A DNA stretch of 64,000 nt. It comes from a virus (taxonomy: Duplodnaviria > Caudoviricetes). The stretch is taken from the IMG/VR virus record IMGVR_UViG_3300014205_000187, positions 42,381-106,380 of that record; one strand, written 5' to 3'. A program made the position numbers and the translations under genes. The notes under the pieces were generated by a model. That model searched no databases, was not told where the DNA came from, and saw only the letters and a list, made by a program, of their open reading frames with translations. Of this stretch, positions 28,438 through 63,831 are shown one piece after another (the stretch's first letter is position 1; each line of letters begins with the position of its first letter).

Positions 28438-31400
28438 GTGTCAATCGCTATAGGAACCTCCATAGACCTTACTGGAGCTGCTACAGGACTGGGGCAGCTT
28501 ACCTCAATGGTCGATACTGCGGTTGCTAACATGAACCGCAAAATGATGTCGGCTTCTGCTGGTATAGCTGCCCCTCTTGGTATTGGTGGTCCCAAAGTTG
28601 GACAAATAGCTAACGAGATGGAGAAGATGGTCGGTCTAACCGGGCGTCTAAACCAGGGTCTCGACCGAATGACCACTCTCTTCGCAGGAGGGCTTGGATT
28701 TGGTATAGCTCTTGGAGGTATAGGTCTATTTACGGCTGCTCTCACCAGGTCTATCGAAAAAGCCAGAGAGTTCCAAACCGCTCAGATTGCTATCGCTGCT
28801 ACCATTCAGTCAGCTTATAAAATAGGCCCACCTGGGGGCAAAGTAGACTGGACTACAAGCACCAATCCTGTTGATCGTGCTAGAGCATTTCAGGTAGCTC
28901 AGTTAGAAGCCTCTAAACTCAACTCAGAGATCATTCGACGCCAAGCTAAAAACATCCTCACATACGAGGAAGAACTTCAGGCTTTCCAATCGTCTCTCGC
29001 TCCTGGTGCTCGTAAAGGTCTCAGCACAAAACAAGTCTTAAACATATCCGAACAAGCTGCTATCGTTGCTAAATCCATCGGTCTACGAGGTGAAGAAATT
29101 GCCAACGCCTCCAGACTACTCATGGGAGGTGGCGTTAATGTAGCCAGGTCTACGATTGGTCGTGTTCTCGGTGTATCTAACGCCGATATTACAGGTAAAA
29201 CCGGGCCTGAGTTCGAGAAGTTTATCAACGAACGCCTCAAAGGTTTCAAAGCCGCTCAACAGCCATTTGCCGTGTCCATCGAAGGTATCATGTCCACTCT
29301 ACAAGCTCAATTGGACGTATTCCTGGCATCTGTCGGCGACAAACTGATGAAACGAATCTCCGGTTCTATCCAGAGCTTAGGTAAAACTTTAGAAGGTCCT
29401 GGAGCTGAAAAGTTTGGAGATATGCTTGCTGATCTATTCGAGTCCGTGGCAAAAGGTATCGAATCCATAGCAAAATCTCCAGCTATTCCGATGATAATGA
29501 AGTTCATCAGTTTCTTGGCTTCTAACGGAGACAAGATTGTTATAGGGATAGCTCTCATGGCTCTCATGGGCGTTATCACAAAAGTTGGTGGGACCCTAAA
29601 AACTCTTGTAGGATGGTTCGGTGAGGTTGCTGTTGCGGCTTCTTCTGCTGCCGGAGCCGTTGATGGTCTTGCTATGGCTACGAACTCCATAGGGGGCACT
29701 GGAGTGGCAATGGCTGGACGAGGTGGTAGAGGTGCTGCTGGACGTATGACGACAGCCAGTGAAATAGCCACAGCAGCCGAAGCCGAAGTTATAGCCGCCA
29801 ACAGAGCTGCTGAATCCGCTTTTGTGAGTGGCAAATGGGGCGGTGGCAAAGGTAATGTGGCAGCCGGAGCCAGAGGCGCATTCCGTGACCCTACAACAGG
29901 CAAGTTTATCAGTAAGAGCGAAGCTGCTTTAAGAACCAGTAGAGGTAGAGCTTTGGCTGGTGAAGTTCAGATGGACGCATTCTCCAATGTTCTTGGAGCT
30001 GACTATCTTACTGGAAAGATTCCCGGTGTCATGGGGCCTATGCAACAGGCCACACTAAGAGAAAGAATTGTAAAAACATTCGGCACCGAAGGAGCTATGG
30101 CTAAGAAAATGCTGGGTCTTGCCGAAACGAACCCAGCAATGGCTACAAAAATAATGGGGGCCATGTCTGTCGGCGGCAAGATGGGTCAATCTGCTCTAAA
30201 GGCTTTCATTGGCACTCAAATTGCTGGTATGGTTCTGCCCGAAAAAATAACGGGTAGTGCTGCCTGGGACATCGGAACAAACGCCTTTATTGGCGGTTCA
30301 GCGATTAAACAGCTTCTCCCTTCTATAGGCATGGGAACTCTAACAGGTGCCGGTGCGACACTGGGAACAGGGGCCGGTGCTCTTCTTGCTGGGGGAGGTG
30401 CTGGAGCTGCCGCCGCTATCAGTTTACCTTTAATTGCTGCAATCGGAGGAGGTCTTATCGGCACCAAGATTCGTCAAAGTGTGTGGAGTGGTATCGATGA
30501 GCCAGGTACAGCAGCTAAGATAGCAGCCGGACGAAAATGGCAAGAAAAACAGATTCCTTTAGCGGTCAAGCATGAAGACCTTCTGACCCGTAAAAGAGAA
30601 ATTGAAAAAGCAATTAAGTCTGGAGGTGGGTTTGAACGCGAAACACCAAACGAAATGCGGGCTTATAACCCACAACATTGGCTTGGTGACACCACTTTCG
30701 GTTACATGGAAGAAGGCTTCGGCACTACAAAAGAAAAAGGCACTGGATTTTCTCCTACACAACTAAAAAAATCCCTTGCCTATATAAACGCCCAACTCAA
30801 AGACACCGAAGAAGTTCAGAGAGCTGTTATCACATCTAATGCTAGAGGCGATATTGTTAAGGGTATTATAGCAAAATCGCAAACACTCCAAACCTCTGCT
30901 TCTCTTGGTTGGGGTGTTCTTCGACAAAAACAAGATATTGAATCCAGGCGTATGGCCGAACAGGCCAAACTTCTTGAACTATACAATGCGCCTGATACAG
31001 GGATACCTCTCGATAAAGACCTGAAAACCAAATTAACTTTAGACTACTTCACTAAAGGAACCGCACTTAACAAACAGTATGGCGGTAAAAAATTATCTGC
31101 GGCTGATATGGACAAAGCTCTTACTGGAGCCGGTCAAGACCTCATGTATCAGCGTAAAACCAGAGAAATAAACGAAAAGTTTGCAAGTGAATCCCTTATC
31201 GCTGATATGCAGCGTAAACAGCTTATAGGTGGAGCTGGTCTAAAAACAATCGGACAAGAATATACATTAGGTAGACAAGCCATTGAGATTCAAATGGCTC
31301 AGTCTAAAGGCACTCTTGGAGCCGACTATAAAGCTACTCTGAATAAAGCTCTACATGCATTTGATGTCCAGTTCAATAAACCTCTAAAAGAGATTGAACA

Positions 31401-55843: not shown

Positions 55844-56296
55844 TCACTCCTTTACTTCATACATGTCAACACTCAACAATATACGTCTATACTCTGAAAC
55901 TATGTCCGATAATATGTTGATTATGACTTTATCTTTAAGTTTCTTGCCTGATGCCAATTCCCTGAGCAATTGCCTTGAGAGTTGTTTAGATGTCTGGAAG
56001 TGATGAGCGGCCATGAACACCTTAGCATCATAAGCAGGTAACACACGGGGCAATTCGTCAATAGCCAATAGGTACTTTGCAAAGTACAACCTGTTAGCTT
56101 CGGTCTCATTCTGCCATGCCTTGTAGTTGCTATAATACGGCTTGCCTGTAAGCTCGCATATAAACCGCTTAGGCGTCGATTCCTGAGCGTTTAAGAACTC
56201 AATGGACTCTAACGCTATGCCGTTCATTCGTACGACCTTGTTGAGAGCGTTTACAATACTTATCTGTTTACGTGCTAACCTAGTTGCCATGACCAT
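55844..56296 (-). CDS. hypothetical protein (cassette array)
   Basis: ORF downstream of a repeated promoter. Confidence 0.65.
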   Translation of the reverse strand: MVMATRLARKQISIVNALNKVVRMNGIALESIEFLNAQESTPKRFICELTGKPYYSNYKAWQNETEANRLYFAKYLLAIDELPRVLPAYDAKVFMAAHHFQTSKQLSRQLLRELASGKKLKDKVIINILSDIVSEYRRILLSVDMYEVKE

Positions 56297-56320
56297 ATAC
56301 CCCACTTGATTATATATCTA

Positions 56321-56366
56321 ATTATACAAGCACATATCGTGCCTTGTCACCTGTCAAAAGTACTAG
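56321..56366 (-). promoter_or_regulatory. cassette promoter 1 (16-bp motif + GG-N10-GC + TATAAT)
   Basis: GGCACGATATGTGC at 56343-56330. Confidence 0.7.
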
Positions 56367-56370
56367 GATT

Positions 56371-56556
56371 TCAACATTCACGCTCAAGCCCATAATGCGG
56401 CGTGAATCTATAGCGTATACCCTTAGATGATACAAGATGATATACATCAGGCTTATAATCCCCTGGTGTAAGCTCTATAGAGCTAACTGTGAGTGTCATA
56501 AACCCCACTCTGACTGTCTTACCCACTTCCCATGCCTGTTTGCTATGCTGTATCAT
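56371..56556 (-). CDS. hypothetical protein
   Basis: GAGGG RBS; SKQAWEVGKTVRVGF. Confidence 0.65.
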   Translation of the reverse strand: MIQHSKQAWEVGKTVRVGFMTLTVSSIELTPGDYKPDVYHLVSSKGIRYRFTPHYGLEREC

Positions 56557-56569
56557 TGTATTCCCTCTC

Positions 56570-56683
56570 TTACTTATTAAATAAGTGCTGTATGCTTGAG
56601 ATTGTTCCCCATGCGCCATAGATCAATGGCGATATGAGAATTATTAAACCGAACAATTTGACTTTCCAATTCATGTTAGACAT
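56570..56683 (-). CDS. 37-aa membrane peptide
   Basis: GGAGG RBS; MSNMNWKVKLFGLIILISPLIYGAW.. Confidence 0.55.
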   Translation of the reverse strand: MSNMNWKVKLFGLIILISPLIYGAWGTISSIQHLFNK

Positions 56684-56747
56684 TGTATGTATCCTCCGTT
56701 TTTGCTTATAATAGATTATTCCATACCCTACATGCGCCCATCCTGTA

Positions 56748-56942
56748 TTAAATACCTGTTTTGCGTAGTTCTTCGATAGGCATGTATTTTACAGTCCGAT
56801 TCTTCGACTTTTGCAGCATGGTCACTTTTCTAAGCAAGTCTTGAGCTGAAATAGTATCCAAGTATTCCCCTTTAGAGTTTGAAATACTAGCCCAATGCCT
56901 GTTATCAGCACTATGGTAAAGCTCATAATAGTATGTTTCCAT
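56748..56942 (-). CDS. hypothetical protein
   Basis: AATTGGGGGAT leader. Confidence 0.6.
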   Translation of the reverse strand: METYYYELYHSADNRHWASISNSKGEYLDTISAQDLLRKVTMLQKSKNRTVKYMPIEELRKTGI

Positions 56943-56972
56943 GTGATTATCCCCCAATTGAATACCTATATA

Positions 56973-57018
56973 ATTATACTTGCAAAAATCGTACCCTGTC
57001 ACCTGTTAAAAGTACTAG
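56973..57018 (-). promoter_or_regulatory. cassette promoter 2
   Basis: GGTACGATTTTTGC at 56995-56982, then TATAAT. Confidence 0.7.
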
Positions 57019-57067
57019 GATTTCCATATTCGAGTCGTTATCCATATAAGCACTTTCAAAACTGTAT

Positions 57068-57241
57068 TCATGATAATCCCCCTTTATGCTTGATAGGGAC
57101 ATTGAGAAGTAAAACATCGTACCCGAATAAGCATGGCGATATGAACGCATAACGATCATACATGCTCATGGCACGTTTAGCGATTCTCATGGCCGTTATG
57201 CCGTCTATGTTCGACTTTGTAGCTTGAATCGTGAAAAACAT
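57068..57241 (-). CDS. 57-aa hypothetical protein
   Basis: AAAGGAG RBS; below the ORF-track cutoff. Confidence 0.5.
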   Translation of the reverse strand: MFFTIQATKSNIDGITAMRIAKRAMSMYDRYAFISPCLFGYDVLLLNVPIKHKGGLS

Positions 57242-57465
57242 CGGCTTTACTCCTTTGCTCTTATAATAGGTTGTTCCATGTATGCAGAGGATTTCACCAA
57301 GTAAAAATACCAGGTTTTTGAGGACACAAAGTACTAGCTAGTACTTCAACTAGGATTGTTGGAGACCTAGTAATTGTACTAGGTATGTTCACATGTAGTG
57401 AACTAAGTGGCGAGTCAAGCGGCGTACATAGTGTTTGTTACTGCTACTGCCAAGCCGCAGCTATA

Positions 57466-57765
57466 TTATGCTACTGCTGCTGTTTTGACGGCCTTTATTT
57501 GATGATACCACGGTCTTACACGGAATCTGCAACCTGTTTCAGGGTCTATGAAGTCAACGCATACAAAACTTGTAGGATTGCCAGGAGTATGATGTACCAC
57601 AGGAACATTGACACTGGCAACAATCCCAACCATGCCAGGTTGAACCAGGAACGAATGAGCTTTAATCCAGCATCTTTCCTTTGGGTATGGCCTTCCGAAG
57701 TGTTCCCCATAAATAGCTTCGGTCAAAGTAACTTGCATACCGATTGCCACATTCTTCTTCTGCAT
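57466..57765 (-). CDS. hypothetical protein
   Basis: GAGGAGG RBS. Confidence 0.6.
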   Translation of the reverse strand: MQKKNVAIGMQVTLTEAIYGEHFGRPYPKERCWIKAHSFLVQPGMVGIVASVNVPVVHHTPGNPTSFVCVDFIDPETGCRFRVRPWYHQIKAVKTAAVA

Positions 57766-57863
57766 GGTTAAAGTTCCTCCTCACAATCGCATTCATACCA
57801 GAACTCTCCACAACCAGCACATATTCCGGCTTGTATAGACCTGCCACATGTGCGTGTCGTTTC

Positions 57864-58046
57864 CTAATTCCGATAATCAAACTCGACTTTTCCCACCATG
57901 TTTCCGTTGATGTCACGAACACCATGATGATAAGAACTTGGTAAACTTTCCTCAAGATCGTCGGCAATTTGTCTGAGCTGCCGAATACACTCAGCATGAT
58001 CGCTTGCGCTGTTTTGATTACCCAGTTTCATTGTGAGTTTATACAT
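57864..58046 (-). CDS. hypothetical protein
   Basis: AATTGGAGGGTATC leader; RDINGNMVG motif. Confidence 0.7.
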   Translation of the reverse strand: MYKLTMKLGNQNSASDHAECIRQLRQIADDLEESLPSSYHHGVRDINGNMVGKVEFDYRN

Positions 58047-58087
58047 ACTGATACCCTCCAATTAAGTATACAACTAACTGTATACTT

Positions 58088-58132
58088 AGTATAAGGCACA
58101 ATACGTGCCACGTCCATAGGTATAAATACCAG
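58088..58132 (-). promoter_or_regulatory. cassette promoter 3
   Basis: TGGCACGTATTGTGC then TATACT. Confidence 0.75.
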
Positions 58133-58181
58133 GATTTTTCTGGGAAAAAGTACTAGCTAGTACTTTAGAGGGGTGTGGGTA

Positions 58182-58231
58182 AAAGACCCACTCTGCGAGT
58201 GAGGCAACATCAACTCGCAGAGTGGGTCTTT
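58182..58231 (-). terminator. 19-bp perfect hairpin terminator
   Basis: AAAGACCCACTCTGCGAGT-N12-ACTCGCAGAGTGGGTCTTT. Confidence 0.8.
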
Positions 58232-58257
58232 GCTATTTTACAATACTCAGCTCTGTT

Positions 58258-58524
58258 TTACCTGTCCTTTGGAACAAAACGAGCTTTGAACTCAGCTAAC
58301 TCCACGACATACAGCCGGTAACTTTCCTCGATCATGGCGGCATCGGCATCAGGAAGCATGGAGCTTATCAAACCAAACCCGCCGACTTCGTATATTCGCA
58401 GTAGGTCTTTTTTGCCGTCTACATCGCTAATAAGCGGATGAGTTTGATATACCCGATGCACAATATCCCATTCTTCATCGGTGATATAGTGCTTTATTGC
58501 GCGTTCCCACTCTGACTTCATCAT
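58258..58524 (-). CDS. hypothetical protein
   Basis: ATGA-coupled to the 58521 ORF. Confidence 0.65.
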   Translation of the reverse strand: MMKSEWERAIKHYITDEEWDIVHRVYQTHPLISDVDGKKDLLRIYEVGGFGLISSMLPDADAAMIEESYRLYVVELAEFKARFVPKDR

Positions 58525-59285
58525 GACTGCACCACCAAACTGACATAGCCGCCTTCACCCTCGGCCATGTATGCTTTTACCAAGTTCAATTTACGCTTGG
58601 CGAAGAACTTACGAAGAACGCTTCGCACGTTGTACGGCTCTTCTCCTTGCGCTATTTGACGTTCCATCATTCCCCACACTAAACGAGGATTGCCAAACGG
58701 AACTTCGGCGAATGCTTGATGAAACAGAGTAGGTACGAAACTGTTTTCCCGAAAGTGCATCAGGTAGTGATCGAACATAAGCTCTTTATGCCCTTGAGCT
58801 TCAAAACGGCATCCCCAACAATCGGCATCGGACACTTCGGGAAGTCCATTCCGCATGATATGCGCGGTATAAGCGGTTATGTACCGACTTACCATGCGGT
58901 CAATTCTCTTTTTAGCCTTTTCAACTTCCTCTGCATCGTACTTGCTCTTGGAGACAATCTCAACATCGGTTTCAGTAACTCGTACCTGTATACCGTCTTC
59001 AAACATTCCCAGGTTATCCCCTGCATGGTAGATGTACCACAAACCGTTATCCTGCCAGATATTGAAAACAGGTAACAACGTGTTAAATCTATCCTTTGTG
59101 GTAGCAGTTCTAAAACCGCCGGAATTGAGGGTATACGTGCCATCAGACTCTATGCGGATAATATCAGTATCCCAGAACCGTACAATGAGCGTTTCCCCCT
59201 CTAAACGTAAAACTGTGTTCCTTGCTAACTTCTTACTCGCACCACGCGCTTTGTCGAGTAGCATACGCCCTTCTTGATAGTTCAT
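58521..59285 (-). CDS. hypothetical protein
   Basis: KLARNT..LNSGGFRTATTKDRFN; GGAGG RBS. Confidence 0.75.
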   Translation of the reverse strand: MNYQEGRMLLDKARGASKKLARNTVLRLEGETLIVRFWDTDIIRIESDGTYTLNSGGFRTATTKDRFNTLLPVFNIWQDNGLWYIYHAGDNLGMFEDGIQVRVTETDVEIVSKSKYDAEEVEKAKKRIDRMVSRYITAYTAHIMRNGLPEVSDADCWGCRFEAQGHKELMFDHYLMHFRENSFVPTLFHQAFAEVPFGNPRLVWGMMERQIAQGEEPYNVRSVLRKFFAKRKLNLVKAYMAEGEGGYVSLVVQS

Positions 59286-59324
59286 GACTTCCTCCGTTAA
59301 TTGAATATATGCTTAACTACATTA

Positions 59325-59370
59325 AGTATACTTGCAAGAATCGTACCTTGTCACCTGTTAAAAATACTAG
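59325..59370 (-). promoter_or_regulatory. cassette promoter 4
   Basis: GGTACGATTCTTGC then TATACT. Confidence 0.75.
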
Positions 59371-59435
59371 GATTTGAAACGAGGTCTATTTTACAATACC
59401 ACACGAAAGTACTAGCTAGTACTTTCTTTTTATAA

Positions 59436-59477
59436 AGAAAACCTGGTAAAATTACCAGCAGGTAAGATTACCAGGCC
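59436..59477 (-). terminator. terminator built from two tandem 16-bp motifs
   Basis: Minus strand CCTGGTAA..TTACCAGG followed by TTTTCTTT. Confidence 0.7.
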
Positions 59478-59481
59478 ACTA

Positions 59482-59691
59482 TTACTGCTGTATCTCGAAC
59501 AACTCCAACTTACGGATAGCGGCGACCTTGTTCTTTACCCCAAGTTTGCCATACACATGGGCGATATGAAAGTCAACTGTTCGCTTTGACAAATAGAGCT
59601 TTTCGGCGATGTCCTTAGACTTCAAACCGTCTGCTACCAACTCCATGACTTCTCGCTCTCTTTTCGTCAATTGTACCGTATCTGTTGCCAT
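59482..59691 (-). CDS. stand-alone LuxR/GerE-type HTH protein
   Basis: LTKREREVMELVADGLKSKDIAEKLYLSKRTVDFHIAHVYGKLGV. Confidence 0.92.
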   Translation of the reverse strand: MATDTVQLTKREREVMELVADGLKSKDIAEKLYLSKRTVDFHIAHVYGKLGVKNKVAAIRKLELFEIQQ

Positions 59692-59773
59692 GATAAGCTC
59701 CTTTTAGTGTGATGTTGCTTCAACTACGTTCGATTTAATCAGATTTCAATGCACTTCTGCTAAAACTACGTTT

Positions 59774-60310
59774 TTACACGATGTCCCACACAATAGACGT
59801 TTTCCACGTAAAACCGTATGAGAAGTCATCTTCCGTGAACTTCGCTTCGATGTCGCATAGAGTCTGGTTTCCATGATCGTTGGTGACAATGACACTTTTA
59901 GGCAGTTTGCCATCTTCAACAAGCATGGTATCCAGCTCTGACAAGTCGGATACTTCGTGAAGTGTTCCCTCTCGAATGTCTTCACGTATAGAGTCATCGT
60001 CAACCCACACCCCATAATCAGCAGCGTCGCCAGGATGGGTACCAAAGTAGGTGTACGACGGGCAATAATCGTAAAGCATATTCATGAGTTCGTCAACTAT
60101 CTCAGACAGACAATTAACAATATCATCTAACTCCAGAGTCGAATGGTTTGTTCGTTTGCCGTCTAAGTAGTTGAAGTACTTCCGATTAGCCCAATGGTAC
60201 GACTTTGCCCGTTTAGGGTCTACACCCCCCAAAATCGCCATAAAGCTGGGTATCAAGTCTTCTTCAAGCATAGTGCCCGATGATACAGAACCTAATTCTA
60301 AAGTTTCCAT
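59774..60310 (-). CDS. hypothetical protein
   Basis: Cassette leader; YFGTHPGDAADYGVW. Confidence 0.75.
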   Translation of the reverse strand: METLELGSVSSGTMLEEDLIPSFMAILGGVDPKRAKSYHWANRKYFNYLDGKRTNHSTLELDDIVNCLSEIVDELMNMLYDYCPSYTYFGTHPGDAADYGVWVDDDSIREDIREGTLHEVSDLSELDTMLVEDGKLPKSVIVTNDHGNQTLCDIEAKFTEDDFSYGFTWKTSIVWDIV

Positions 60311-60340
60311 GCAGATACCCTCCAATTGAGTATATACCTA

Positions 60341-60385
60341 AGTATAAAGCATAAAACGTGCCGTGTCACCTGTAAAATATACCAG
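60341..60385 (-). promoter_or_regulatory. cassette promoter 5
   Basis: GGCACGTTTTATGC then TATACT. Confidence 0.75.
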
Positions 60386-60440
60386 GATTTAAGTATTTAT
60401 ACTTCCTGCCACAAGTACTAGCTAGTACTTTCTTTTTATA

Positions 60441-60485
60441 AAGAAAAGCCTGGTAATTCTACCTGCATAGTAAAATTACCAGGCC
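60441..60485 (-). terminator. terminator built from two tandem 16-bp motifs
   Basis: GCCTGGTAATT..AATTACCAGGC followed by TTTTCTTT. Confidence 0.75.
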
Positions 60486-60492
60486 GCTGCTG

Positions 60493-60909
60493 TTACACCC
60501 ATTTATGCCGCAGTGCGTACCCGCCATCCGAATGCTGATGTGGGGTATAATCACGGTCGCCGTTGCTGTGATCGTTTGACGGGCAGCTCTTACCTATACA
60601 CTCGAAGTTATCTTTGAAAAGTGTTCGGCTGAGAGAATAAACCACATGAAAGCCCATGTCCATTCCACAGCCTGAAACGCTCAAACATTCACGCTTATCA
60701 TTGAACCGTTCGCCGATTGCTTTACCCACCAAACGACTAATCCACTGAGGTACATTGTCACTCATATAGTAAACATCTATACCCCTACTCATACCACTCT
60801 GAGACCTATACCGAAGAACCGTATACACAGTGTCACCAGGCTTTAAGACCTGCCGTAAATGCTGTATAGCTTCTTGTCTCTCAGCTTCTTTATCGCTCTT
60901 TATCGACAT
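60493..60909 (-). CDS. hypothetical protein
   Basis: SQSGMSR..VSGCGMDMGFHVVY motif seen in small phage proteins. Confidence 0.75.
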   Translation of the reverse strand: MSIKSDKEAERQEAIQHLRQVLKPGDTVYTVLRYRSQSGMSRGIDVYYMSDNVPQWISRLVGKAIGERFNDKRECLSVSGCGMDMGFHVVYSLSRTLFKDNFECIGKSCPSNDHSNGDRDYTPHQHSDGGYALRHKWV

Positions 60910-60951
60910 GCAGATACCCTCCAATTAGTTGTATAACTAAGTCTATACCTA

Positions 60952-60996
60952 ATTATAAGCAATAAACGTGCCAAAGTCTATTGGTAAAAATGCTGG
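60952..60996 (-). promoter_or_regulatory. cassette promoter 6 (perfect sigma54 consensus)
   Basis: TTGGCACGTTTATTGC then TATAAT. Confidence 0.8.
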
Positions 60997-61101
60997 GTTT
61001 TCAGGGATTTTACTGAAGTATAAAGTACTAGCTAGTACTTCACACAGGCACAAAACAACCTGGTAAAATTACTGGGTAGTAGTTTTACCAGGCCGCTGCT
61101 G

Positions 61102-61749
61102 TTACTGCTGCAATGGCAATGATATTGTTAATACATCGGGTTCGACATCGGAGAATGTCTCTTTAAGAAGTTCGACAAGATACTCATCTTTATAACTTCC
61201 TTCAAAAGAGTCATATTCCATAATCGCTTCAGCGACAAGAGCCTTGACCATTTCCTCATCTTCGGGTTCCGGTCTATAGAATCCATTGTCGTCAAGCAGT
61301 CGCAGTATATGCGCCGCTTCAGCCATCTTACTGACATCCCACTTCGCCCAATTATCATAAGCGTTGTTTGCCTGCTCCAGTTCACGAGCCATCATGTCCT
61401 CTTCATCTATCACCAGATGCCCATGCCATCGGGTATACATGAACAGCTCATGCAGGCATTCCATAGCTTTGCGGGATGTAGTCTTGACCATGATATGGTC
61501 ATACCAACCTACAGCCCAATGACTTGTATGCATGGTCTCAACGTACTTCGGAGCTGCTTTCTTGAGTGCCCGTAAAACTGCATAATAGTTCGACTGCTCT
61601 AATATGTCCGAATCACGATGCAGTCCGAACGGCGCGAATCCCCAGACTTTCAGGTCAAGCTCACCGGAATACATAAAGTTCCTCGGCTTGGTAAGCATAG
61701 CCTCTTTGAAACCTTCGATAGTCTCATACTTCTTGGTGTCCTCTATCAT
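61102..61749 (-). CDS. hypothetical protein
   Basis: HRDSDILEQSNY, SHWAVGW. Confidence 0.75.
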   Translation of the reverse strand: MIEDTKKYETIEGFKEAMLTKPRNFMYSGELDLKVWGFAPFGLHRDSDILEQSNYYAVLRALKKAAPKYVETMHTSHWAVGWYDHIMVKTTSRKAMECLHELFMYTRWHGHLVIDEEDMMARELEQANNAYDNWAKWDVSKMAEAAHILRLLDDNGFYRPEPEDEEMVKALVAEAIMEYDSFEGSYKDEYLVELLKETFSDVEPDVLTISLPLQQ

Positions 61750-61753
61750 GCTG

Positions 61754-62164
61754 CTACTCCTCTAAGGCATTCGGATAAGGTGGGAGAGTAAAAGGTGGTT
61801 CATTGCATCGGTAGTATTCCATGATACCTTCCCATGCTTCATCATACTCATCAGCTTTACAGCGTTGAGTGGGTAGGTTCGTAACATTCTTAACATCCTG
61901 AACATGCATATAGTCTACAGGGTTTGTAGACACTGCCCATGCCTGCTGAACTTCCTGCTCTACTTCGTCATTGTTTTCGTCATATACCCGAATCACTGCC
62001 TGTAAAGCATGAAGTTCATAAGACGGCGTGAACTCGCAAAGATGCCAATGGATATTCTCATTATAGAGGTATATACCATATATAGCACCTCCGGCCTTCT
62101 CTACAAGTTCAGCATCCCAATACTCGGTCTCATCTATAACTAATACTCTCGGCTTGATATACAT
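61754..62164 (-). CDS. hypothetical acidic protein
   Basis: AATTGGAGAGTATC leader. Confidence 0.7.
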   Translation of the reverse strand: MYIKPRVLVIDETEYWDAELVEKAGGAIYGIYLYNENIHWHLCEFTPSYELHALQAVIRVYDENNDEVEQEVQQAWAVSTNPVDYMHVQDVKNVTNLPTQRCKADEYDEAWEGIMEYYRCNEPPFTLPPYPNALEE

Positions 62165-62205
62165 GATGATACTCTCCAATTGGTAAGACAACTAAGTCTA
62201 TACTT

Positions 62206-62251
62206 AGTATATCGCACATTCCGTGCCAATGGGAATTGGTAAATATACCTG
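62206..62251 (-). promoter_or_regulatory. cassette promoter 7
   Basis: TTGGCACGGAATGTGC then TATACT. Confidence 0.75.
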
Positions 62252-62469
62252 ATTTCAAAAACGAGGTCTATCTTACGCTACCTACATGAATTACTAGCCA
62301 GTACTTTCTTCCCGCAAAACCATCCCCGTATTTCTACGGGGGTGATTTATTAACGATCAAGACAATCCCCACTGCTGCTGCTACTGCTGTCCAGAATGTA
62401 ACGTCCATACCGAATGCAGGATATATCCAAACAGCGCATACAGCCGCTAGAATAACGACCAGAGCCGCC

Positions 62470-62853
62470 TTAGTCAATGCAATGCTCTGGCAGCTCGGCG
62501 TCAAACTCGCTTGCACAGTGAGAGCAGGTCAACTTCTGAGTAGCCGGATAATCGCACATCGTATTGAGCGTTTCACATATCGGACATTCCCATTCATAGC
62601 CCGATGCTACCACGTCTACGCAGCCACTCCATTCAACCGTGTCGGACACTTCGTTAGCTTCAAAAGTGCCATCTTCGTACTCATACTCATCCATGTTCCA
62701 TACTATACGAGCATCCGTGGTCGTAAGTGTTCCATCGGCTATCATTTCCTCGACAAGAGCTTGAGCCGCTTCCTCATTCTCAGCTTCTATAAGCACCTTG
62801 CCGGTCATATAGCCATGCTTCTCGACATCTACAACATACCGAATTGTCTCCAT
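62470..62853 (-). CDS. acidic zinc-ribbon protein
   Basis: AAGGAGG RBS; WECPIC..CSHC. Confidence 0.7.
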   Translation of the reverse strand: METIRYVVDVEKHGYMTGKVLIEAENEEAAQALVEEMIADGTLTTTDARIVWNMDEYEYEDGTFEANEVSDTVEWSGCVDVVASGYEWECPICETLNTMCDYPATQKLTCSHCASEFDAELPEHCID

Positions 62854-62863
62854 GTATTCCTCC

Positions 62864-63055
62864 TTAACCTATATCGAAAACATCAGTAGCGTCAAAGTAT
62901 CCCTGAAACTTGTGACCACACTTCTGGCATATCAAATGCTTTCGTGCAGTCTCATTGTCGAAGTTGCACATGGTATGATACTCACCACAATCAGGACATT
63001 CCCATTCAAACCTCGCTATGATGACATTCACCCTTTCGAGTCGTTTTTTACTCAT
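62864..63055 (-). CDS. zinc-ribbon protein
   Basis: WECPDC..CQKC. Confidence 0.65.
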   Translation of the reverse strand: MSKKRLERVNVIIARFEWECPDCGEYHTMCNFDNETARKHLICQKCGHKFQGYFDATDVFDIG

Positions 63056-63297
63056 CGTGCATCCGTCCAGACTGTACCATCGTCATGCAGGTCAAGAACC
63101 TGCCCGTCCAGTTCTCCGGTAAGACCCGCTTCAAGCATACCTGTAGCGATATTCTCAATACAGCCATGCTCAACTGCGATAGCTTCGCCAAGTGTTTGAC
63201 GATCTTCGGGTAAATGTTCCTCAACCCATTCCTGAGCTTCAGGGGTATTCAGGAACAAAAGATAAATGGTACCGTGATTATTGATTCTAAAGTCCAT
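63052..63297 (-). CDS. hypothetical protein
   Basis: NHGTIYLL..AQEWVEEHL..IAVEH. Confidence 0.7.
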   Translation of the reverse strand: MDFRINNHGTIYLLFLNTPEAQEWVEEHLPEDRQTLGEAIAVEHGCIENIATGMLEAGLTGELDGQVLDLHDDGTVWTDAR

Positions 63298-63298
63298 T

Positions 63299-63697
63299 TT
63301 ACACCCCTAACTTTCGATAAGCACACAGCTCACCACTCGGATGGTAGCGAACCGTGATACCTTTTGTGAATGCGGTCTCAGTGTCGGGTACGATTCCCTC
63401 ATGATCAGCACATTCCGCTAAAGCATCAGCAATGGCGTTCCCGATTTTAGCCTGCACTCCACGATAAGTACTCACAGGTTCAGAGTATTCCAATTCCACA
63501 CTGAACTTACTCGACTGTGAACCTTCCTCAACACGCTCTACGGTGAAGTCTTCCAAACCATCAGGCATGACTTCTACCTCGTTGGCAAAGCTGTCAAAGA
63601 GGTCACAAACGCCATCTACGGCCTTCTGACGTTCCTCCTCCGTCAAGTCACGTTGAAAGTTCAATTCGACTGTGACATTGACAACATTTCTTTCCAT
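63299..63697 (-). CDS. hypothetical acidic protein
   Basis: AATTAGGAGGTATC leader. Confidence 0.7.
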   Translation of the reverse strand: MERNVVNVTVELNFQRDLTEEERQKAVDGVCDLFDSFANEVEVMPDGLEDFTVERVEEGSQSSKFSVELEYSEPVSTYRGVQAKIGNAIADALAECADHEGIVPDTETAFTKGITVRYHPSGELCAYRKLGV

Positions 63698-63728
63698 GTT
63701 GATACCTCCTAATTAGTTATCCTACTAA

Positions 63729-63773
63729 AGTATAACGCATAAAGTGTGCCCTGTCTGCTGGTATATTTACCAG
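63729..63773 (-). promoter_or_regulatory. cassette promoter 8
   Basis: GGCACACTTTATGC then TATACT; CTGGTATATTTACCAG upstream. Confidence 0.75.
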
Positions 63774-63831
63774 ATTTCAAAAACGAGGTCTATCTTACGA
63801 TACCACACGAAAGTACTAGCTAGTACTTCTA

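Follow-up and report, generated by a model that had tools for sequence, protein, structure and literature searches.

A rigid sigma-54-like element fills the spacer of sigma-70-type promoters in the early gene array of a clade of ~100-kb tailed phages

The DNA analysed here, a window of 64,000 nucleotides, is the final 64 kb of the 106,380-bp virus record IMGVR_UViG_3300014205_000187 (Duplodnaviria; Caudoviricetes; genome G000 below), and our subject is a short element, GG-N10-GC, that recurs in the promoters of an array of small early-type genes near the right end of the window. The two ends of the record overlap by 123 bp, and hence the sequence wraps. G000 is a tailed phage that encodes a large terminase, a portal, a capsid-protease fusion and a family A DNA polymerase, as well as ribonucleotide reductase, ligase, ThyX and a transfer-messenger RNA. 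The same DNA is present in metagenomes from landfill and groundwater, with no RNA data set listed among its carriers; blastn gave no cultured-phage match for the array region, and an Rfam search of that region returned no match.

The array is served by promoter cassettes (Table 1) that follow one order: the terminator of the previous unit, a palindrome, an imperfect dyad, a -35-like hexamer, the element in the form GG-N9-TGC, 1-3 nt, a TATAMT -10 hexamer, a Shine-Dalgarno sequence and the start codon. The -35-like hexamer is most often GTGACA in the window cassettes, the centre of the dyad (CCTrGTA-N4-6-TAmCAGG) is ~43 bp ahead of the predicted transcription start, and the leader, of 30-45 nt, has a strong Shine-Dalgarno sequence and the start codon at its end. 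Each window copy of the palindrome sits between the upstream terminator and the promoter, the one at 57330 heading a degenerate unit, and two further copies of AGTACTAGCTAGTACT lie beyond the window end. The palindrome contains two CTAGs, kept in each cassette despite the genome-wide scarcity of this tetranucleotide (94 observed against ~403 expected, about four-fold under-represented). Terminator hairpins at 59443-59458, 60447-60485 and 61058-61077 are built from a CTGGTAA...TTACCAG dyad, which is found again, now lacking a T-run, immediately before the promoter -35. Conserved hairpins in the 5' leaders were considered and dropped, as the 58109 unit alone gave a good fold (-9.1 kcal/mol, z -1.9), one other being marginal and the rest at shuffle level.

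Table 1. The early-type gene array, its promoter cassettes and a candidate regulator gene. Positions are those of the window; for each promoter core the -35-like hexamer, the spacer length and the -10 hexamer are given, followed by the position of the GG-N10-GC element.
Feature	Position	Strand	Details
Array of ~18 small early-type genes, served by the cassettes	55844..63697	-	Pfam family for almost none; few common to relatives
Promoter core 1	56321..56350	-	GTGACA, 18 bp, TATAAT; element 56330-56343
Promoter core 2	56973..57002	-	GTGACA, 18 bp, TATAAT; element 56982-56995, GGTAC form
Degenerate cassette	57250..57345	-	Palindrome and upstream box present; GG-N11-GC; -10 TATTAT ~20 nt further downstream
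Promoter core 3	58088..58116	-	TGGACG, 17 bp, TATACT; element 58096-58109, GGCAC-N4-GTGCC, also a palindrome
Promoter core 4	59325..59354	-	GTGACA, 18 bp, TATACT; element 59334-59347, GGTAC form
69-aa GerE/LuxR-type helix-turn-helix protein, candidate phage regulator	59482..59691	-	Homologue in relative G002 only
Promoter core 5	60341..60369	-	GTGACA, 17 bp, TATACT; element 60349-60362; unit also carries the GerE-type gene
Promoter core 6	60952..60980	-	TAGACT, 17 bp, TATAAT; element 60959-60972; with flanks 11/11 match to TGGCAC-N5-TTGCW
Promoter core 7	62206..62235	-	TTCCCA (poor -35), 18 bp, TATACT; element 62214-62227
Promoter core 8	63729..63757	-	CAGACA, 17 bp, TATACT; element 63737-63750
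16-bp palindrome AGTACTAGCTAGTACT, seven window copies	57330, 58149, 59408, 60414, 61024, 62290 (2 mismatches), 63812 (within 57330..63827)		

The initial annotation had described eight minus-strand sites with the -24/-12 spacing of sigma-54 promoters, each followed within 1-3 nt by TATAAT or TATACT. All eight were found where it had placed them, the -10 hexamer lying 1 nt downstream at one site, 2 nt at four and 3 nt at three. Its description of the -12 half as overlapping the -10 box does not hold, as this half abuts the hexamer and the whole element sits in the spacer, which it fills. In a promoter scan each of the eight was called sigma-70-like, the hexamers matching at 9-11 of 12 positions across a spacer of 17-18 bp. 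A ninth copy, GGCAATTAAATTGC followed after 3 nt by TATACT, lies on the minus strand at genome position 226, just past the window end because the record wraps; the open frame at the right edge of the window is the 3' end of the gene that this copy heads. In a shuffle control, the pattern GGYAC-N6-TGC matched 10 times in the window against 2.39 expected, and none of 100 shuffles reached 10. These matches comprise the eight sites, the 58109 site once more (being palindromic, it also reads in reverse) and one at 30211, which is intragenic and unrelated, and the rest of the genome adds only two scattered ones.

We compared G000 with three complete relatives (G001, G002 and G006; terminases 63-71% identical) found by terminase search, G006 being reached through a pattern match. 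The composite GG-N9-TGC-N1-3-TATAMT occurs on the early strand 9 times in G000, 5 in G001, 18 in G002 and 7 in G006, and the sole other match in these four genomes is in G006, on the opposite strand and outside the array. The reversed control pattern had zero matches in the four phage genomes, the composite was absent from a more distant phage (terminase 35% identical), and four unrelated bacterial genomes gave 2-4 matches per 0.8-5.6 Mb. When promoters were picked in the early regions blind to the element, from a -10 hexamer, a Shine-Dalgarno sequence and a start codon, the element was present in every intergenic candidate, and the picks that lacked it lay inside genes. The early gene sets of the four phages have almost nothing in common. 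In all four genomes the -35 and -10 hexamers lie 16-18 bp apart upstream of a gene, as in a sigma-70/sigmaA-type promoter, and hence the host primary holoenzyme can be expected to fire them. The claim that the GG/GC spacing is the tighter constraint was borne out: all 39 sites have GG, TGC and the 10-bp spacing without exception, while relative to the element the -10 moves by 1-3 nt and the -35 by 0-2 nt. The element thus behaves as a rigid unit that is read separately from the hexamers.

Pooled over the 39 sites, the logo (T, GG, C, A, C, R, a T-rich stretch, T, TGC, A) equals that of sigma-54, and the invariant GG and TGC coincide with the positions most important for this factor. The flanks too agree overall with TGGCAC-N5-TTGCW, the match being weaker in the window than in G002. 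There, 15 of the 18 sites are full matches (11 of 11 positions) and the other three score 10, when ~0.1 perfect sites would be expected in a genome of this size from base composition; a perfect TTGACA is present in 12 of the 18, and TATAAT in all except one. It is very unlikely that 11 specified positions at exact spacing were matched in G002 by chance, even across a large scan. The nine G000 copies score 11 (one), 9 (seven) and 8 (the 63750 site), those of G001 7-8, and those of G006, where the -35 is poor (3/6), 8-9 of 11. Across the four genomes, the strength of the -35 and that of the sigma-54 match vary together. The forms GGCGC, GGTAC, GGAAC, GGAAT and GGCTT, all seen in the phages, are among sites bound by sigma-54 in vivo in Escherichia coli (PMC4591121, S2 table). 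Perfect 11/11 matches with no -10 hexamer also occur inside genes, at window 30210-30225 (+) and genome 39705-39720 (+); ~0.08 perfect sites are expected in the whole G000 genome.

Such conservation might require no separate reader, were the spacer part of an extended primary-sigma promoter or carried along by cassette copying or conversion within genomes. Some lytic phages, such as T4, do have early promoters conserved outside the hexamers, and many G002 cassettes are near-identical over >100 bp, pointing to recent duplication. However, comparison of the genomes shows divergence in the flanks, central N5, leaders and upstream boxes, all around 39 unchanged combinations of GG, spacing and TGC, and the TG is 2 nt too far upstream for an extended -10. 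In addition, other promoters of the same genome, which have a AAAACAGGTA(T/A) box ~43-45 bp before the -10 (window 14529 (-) and 56762 (-), genome 41288 (+) and others), do without GG-N10-GC. This confines the element to the early class, and we consider its conservation with no reader of its own improbable.

In general plan the array recalls the terminal-redundancy module of SPO1 and the early promoters of T5 and T4, where small, fast-evolving genes each have a strong primary-sigma promoter, a Shine-Dalgarno sequence and a terminator. As in those phages, the small genes form a cluster at one end of the genome and run opposite to the late genes; to our knowledge, no sigma-54-type spacer element exists in the early promoters of SPO1, T5 or T4. 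With classical sigma-54 promoters (glnAp2, pspA, nifH) the cassettes share GG and GC exactly 10 bp apart, TGGCAC and TTGCW flanks and a sense orientation upstream of genes. Those promoters have no -35/-10 hexamers and need an AAA+ activator bound 80-150 bp upstream, whereas in the phage cassettes consensus sigma-70 hexamers flank the element and the activator is not encoded.

The chromosomal glmY and glmZ genes combine the two promoter types: their promoters overlap, and the sigma-54 holoenzyme represses the overlapping sigma-70 promoter when no active activator is present (Gopel et al., 2011; PMC3045617). The likeness to glmY extends to the nesting of a -24/-12 element in a sigma-70 promoter, where both polymerases start at about the same nucleotide (PMC3045617). 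Sigma-54 transcripts start 12 nt after GC (PMC4591121), which in the phage cassettes would be 3-5 nt after the -10 hexamer, compared with ~7 nt for sigma-70; the two predicted starts are thus 2-4 nt apart on shared DNA, close to the near-same start site of glmY. Start-site mapping had been put forward as a means to tell the two polymerases apart; it would discriminate poorly at this distance. The systems differ in that glmY-type promoters serve single chromosomal small-RNA genes and have three GlrR sites plus IHF sites upstream, whereas the phages have 5-18 copies per genome before protein-coding early genes, and we found no conserved activator site. Judged from sequence, we regard it as an even call whether the core of the early cassettes is a glmY-type dual promoter, fired by the primary-sigma polymerase while the sigma-54 holoenzyme competes or gates.

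At such a promoter the host primary holoenzyme would initiate as soon as the DNA enters the cell, and the host sigma-54 holoenzyme may dock on the same 30 bp, as the match of the rigid GG-N10-GC spacer to the -24/-12 consensus leads us to infer. The sigma-54 holoenzyme cannot open DNA alone, and given that the phage encodes no enhancer-binding ATPase its default effect would be a silent closed complex. This complex would compete with the primary-sigma polymerase, as at glmY of E. coli and Salmonella, and the host-takeover genes would be braked or gated by the size of the host sigma-54 pool. In a possible second route, a host enhancer-binding protein would activate firing from nearly the same start site; if sigma-54 binds, we hold occlusion to be modestly more probable than activation. 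The proposal of the initial annotation that host sigma-54 switches the early module, by activation or as a repressor, thus stands for what can be read at the locus, namely an early-class element with the sigma-54 logo, nested in a sigma-70-type promoter and retained in four diverged phages; the docking of sigma-54 and the direction of its action are its conjectural part. As to the clade, we tentatively propose, at somewhat less than even confidence, that these ~100-kb phages have placed a docking site for host sigma-54 in the spacer of each of their early sigma-70-type promoters. The enhancer-dependent polymerase, bound there without firing, would gate the host-takeover programme according to host physiology or serve to park polymerase.

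Phage early transcription is thought to use the host primary sigma factor or phage polymerases, and no phage precedent for such a use of sigma-54 was found in a full-text literature search. If the sigma-54 site is real, the first minutes of infection would be tied to a host factor through which nitrogen, envelope and stress status are signalled. The G002 promoter, with a perfect sigma-70 and a perfect sigma-54 consensus in 30 bp, would be a test object for competition between holoenzymes. Were the reader not sigma-54, the element would still be a strictly conserved signal of the early class.

Several observations weigh against sigma-54 as the reader. Most window sites score only 9 of 11, ~20 other sites in the genome with the GG/GC doublets also score at least 9, and a simple consensus scan at a threshold of at least 8/11 was not above shuffles (87 vs 65); the evidence is one of invariance and context, not of single-site scores. 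Base preference outside GG and TGC is genome-specific (GGCGC or GGCTT in G001, GGAAT or GGCGT in G006), a pattern that a phage factor diverging along with its sites would also explain. The search for a phage activator was negative, the Sigma54_activat domain being encoded by none of G000, G001, G002 and two further phage genomes (G007 and G008). Nor do we see a clear selective benefit in equipping each early promoter with a repressive site for a host factor. Finally, the upstream palindrome, which could be an enhancer, is not present in G001, and its distance to GG ranges over 38-168 bp across the relatives. In G000 the distance from palindrome centre to GG is 47-71 bp (47-69 in the five exact-copy units and ~70 for the degenerate 62290 copy). 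With distances so variable and no copy in G001, an enhancer in fixed helical phase is unsupported.

The absence of rpoN and of an enhancer-binding protein gene, which had been noted for the window, extends to the whole genome and to the relatives. The Sigma54_DBD domain was encoded by none of the genomes examined, and neither an RpoN box nor a GAFTGA motif was present in the six frames of G000. An AAA+ match in G006 was rejected as a sigma-54 activator, being weak and RuvB-like. No sigma-70-family protein is encoded in G000, G001 or G002. Some members of the clade do encode a sigma-70-family sigma factor with regions 2, 3 and 4 (G006:8888-9097, locus L238, and locus L236).

The GG-N8-TTGC motif might instead be a class-specific operator of another factor, either an early phage regulator (HTH_58 or GerE-type) or a host protein, its likeness to sigma-54 sites being convergent. 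Shared operators are the usual phage means of controlling a promoter class, and the cassettes need nothing beyond their sigma-70 elements in order to fire. In three of the four genomes (G000, G001 and G002) an HTH_58 gene stands at the head of the array, the genome-specific flavours of the -24 half fit a diverging specificity, and the promoters carry more sites of a protein-binding type (the dyad near -43 and the palindrome). Against an operator, the invariant GG and TGC are asymmetric, which argues against dimeric binding; GCAC...GTGC makes a palindrome in three of the eight window sites and in none of those of G001. The 16-18-bp spacer is also shorter than the 19-20 bp of MerR-type promoters, and the 11-position match of G002 at exact spacing would have to be a very improbable coincidence. 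Moreover, no candidate phage regulator is common to all four genomes, the two candidates being present in two and three of them. As the early gene content also differs, a common reader would more simply be a host protein. We hold an operator for another factor to be rather unlikely, yet a serious alternative to a sigma-54 docking site.

The sites might also serve to titrate sigma-54, 9-18 of them per genome, multiplied by replication, soaking up the host sigma-54 holoenzyme and blunting sigma-54-dependent host responses, with regulation of phage genes not the aim. The number of sites, their consensus strength in G002 and the lack of an encoded activator agree with this. A pure decoy, however, would not need every site to be gene-oriented and locked to a -10 at 1-3 nt, and the weak sites of G001 and G006 would be poor sponges, all of which makes titration quite improbable.

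Strong use of Shine-Dalgarno sequences argues against a Bacteroidota host, and a heptosyltransferase-like gene hints at a diderm host with lipopolysaccharide. A secreted head-region protein has weak structural neighbours, mostly from Armatimonadota (template-modelling score about 0.5), so that this group is a weak lead only. Terminase tblastn gave no cultured relative and only relatives <30% identical, on mixed hosts, which permits no host inference from the terminase. Two other approaches to the host were abandoned: the best relative of TnpB, 54% identical, comes from an Aerophobetes metagenome-assembled genome and is uninformative, and the heptosyltransferase led to viral clusters in a protein atlas. 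Scans of viral contigs gave only single chance matches with the palindrome and, with the upstream-box pattern, mostly chance ones among the matches listed.

Two regions of the genome outside the array deserve mention. A sugar and methyl-transfer cluster at genome 9-27 kb (loci L233 and L234) encodes GT2, GT4 and GT9 (heptosyltransferase-like) glycosyltransferases, a PfkB kinase, a cytidylyltransferase, a GatZ-like protein, a cupin and methyltransferases, and may modify DNA or the cell surface. Outside the window, on the upstream side of the array, an 800-bp region free of genes (genome 900-1750, locus L233) contains a ~20-bp repeat, GTAGTCTTATAAGTAGGTAC and variants, in three direct copies and one inverted copy. 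This region may be an origin, a packaging site or a master control region, and the first gene after it, at genome 511-888 on the minus strand, encodes the HTH_58 protein, which also has a zinc ribbon.

Comparable arrangements were seen in other viral DNA. In locus L229 (G007:78001-92000; also in G008), three operons on the minus strand (3013, 5726 and 9603) are headed by TTTTTGGCACG-N4-(T/A)TGC-AT-TATAAT. Two of these sites have TTGC and one ATGC; they have no -35-like hexamer and share a GCTTGATTTT box ~60-70 bp upstream. Going by its motif, L229, from a phage outside the terminase-relative set, would independently provide an example of a sigma-54 consensus fixed 2 nt ahead of a -10 hexamer. 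Viral contig L059 has a repeated GGGGCAYCNGATGC-CT-TATAAT (1953, 6587, 9540 and 10046), that is, GG-N10-GC followed after 2 nt by a -10 hexamer, and each repeat is preceded by a conserved CTGGCACAG box.

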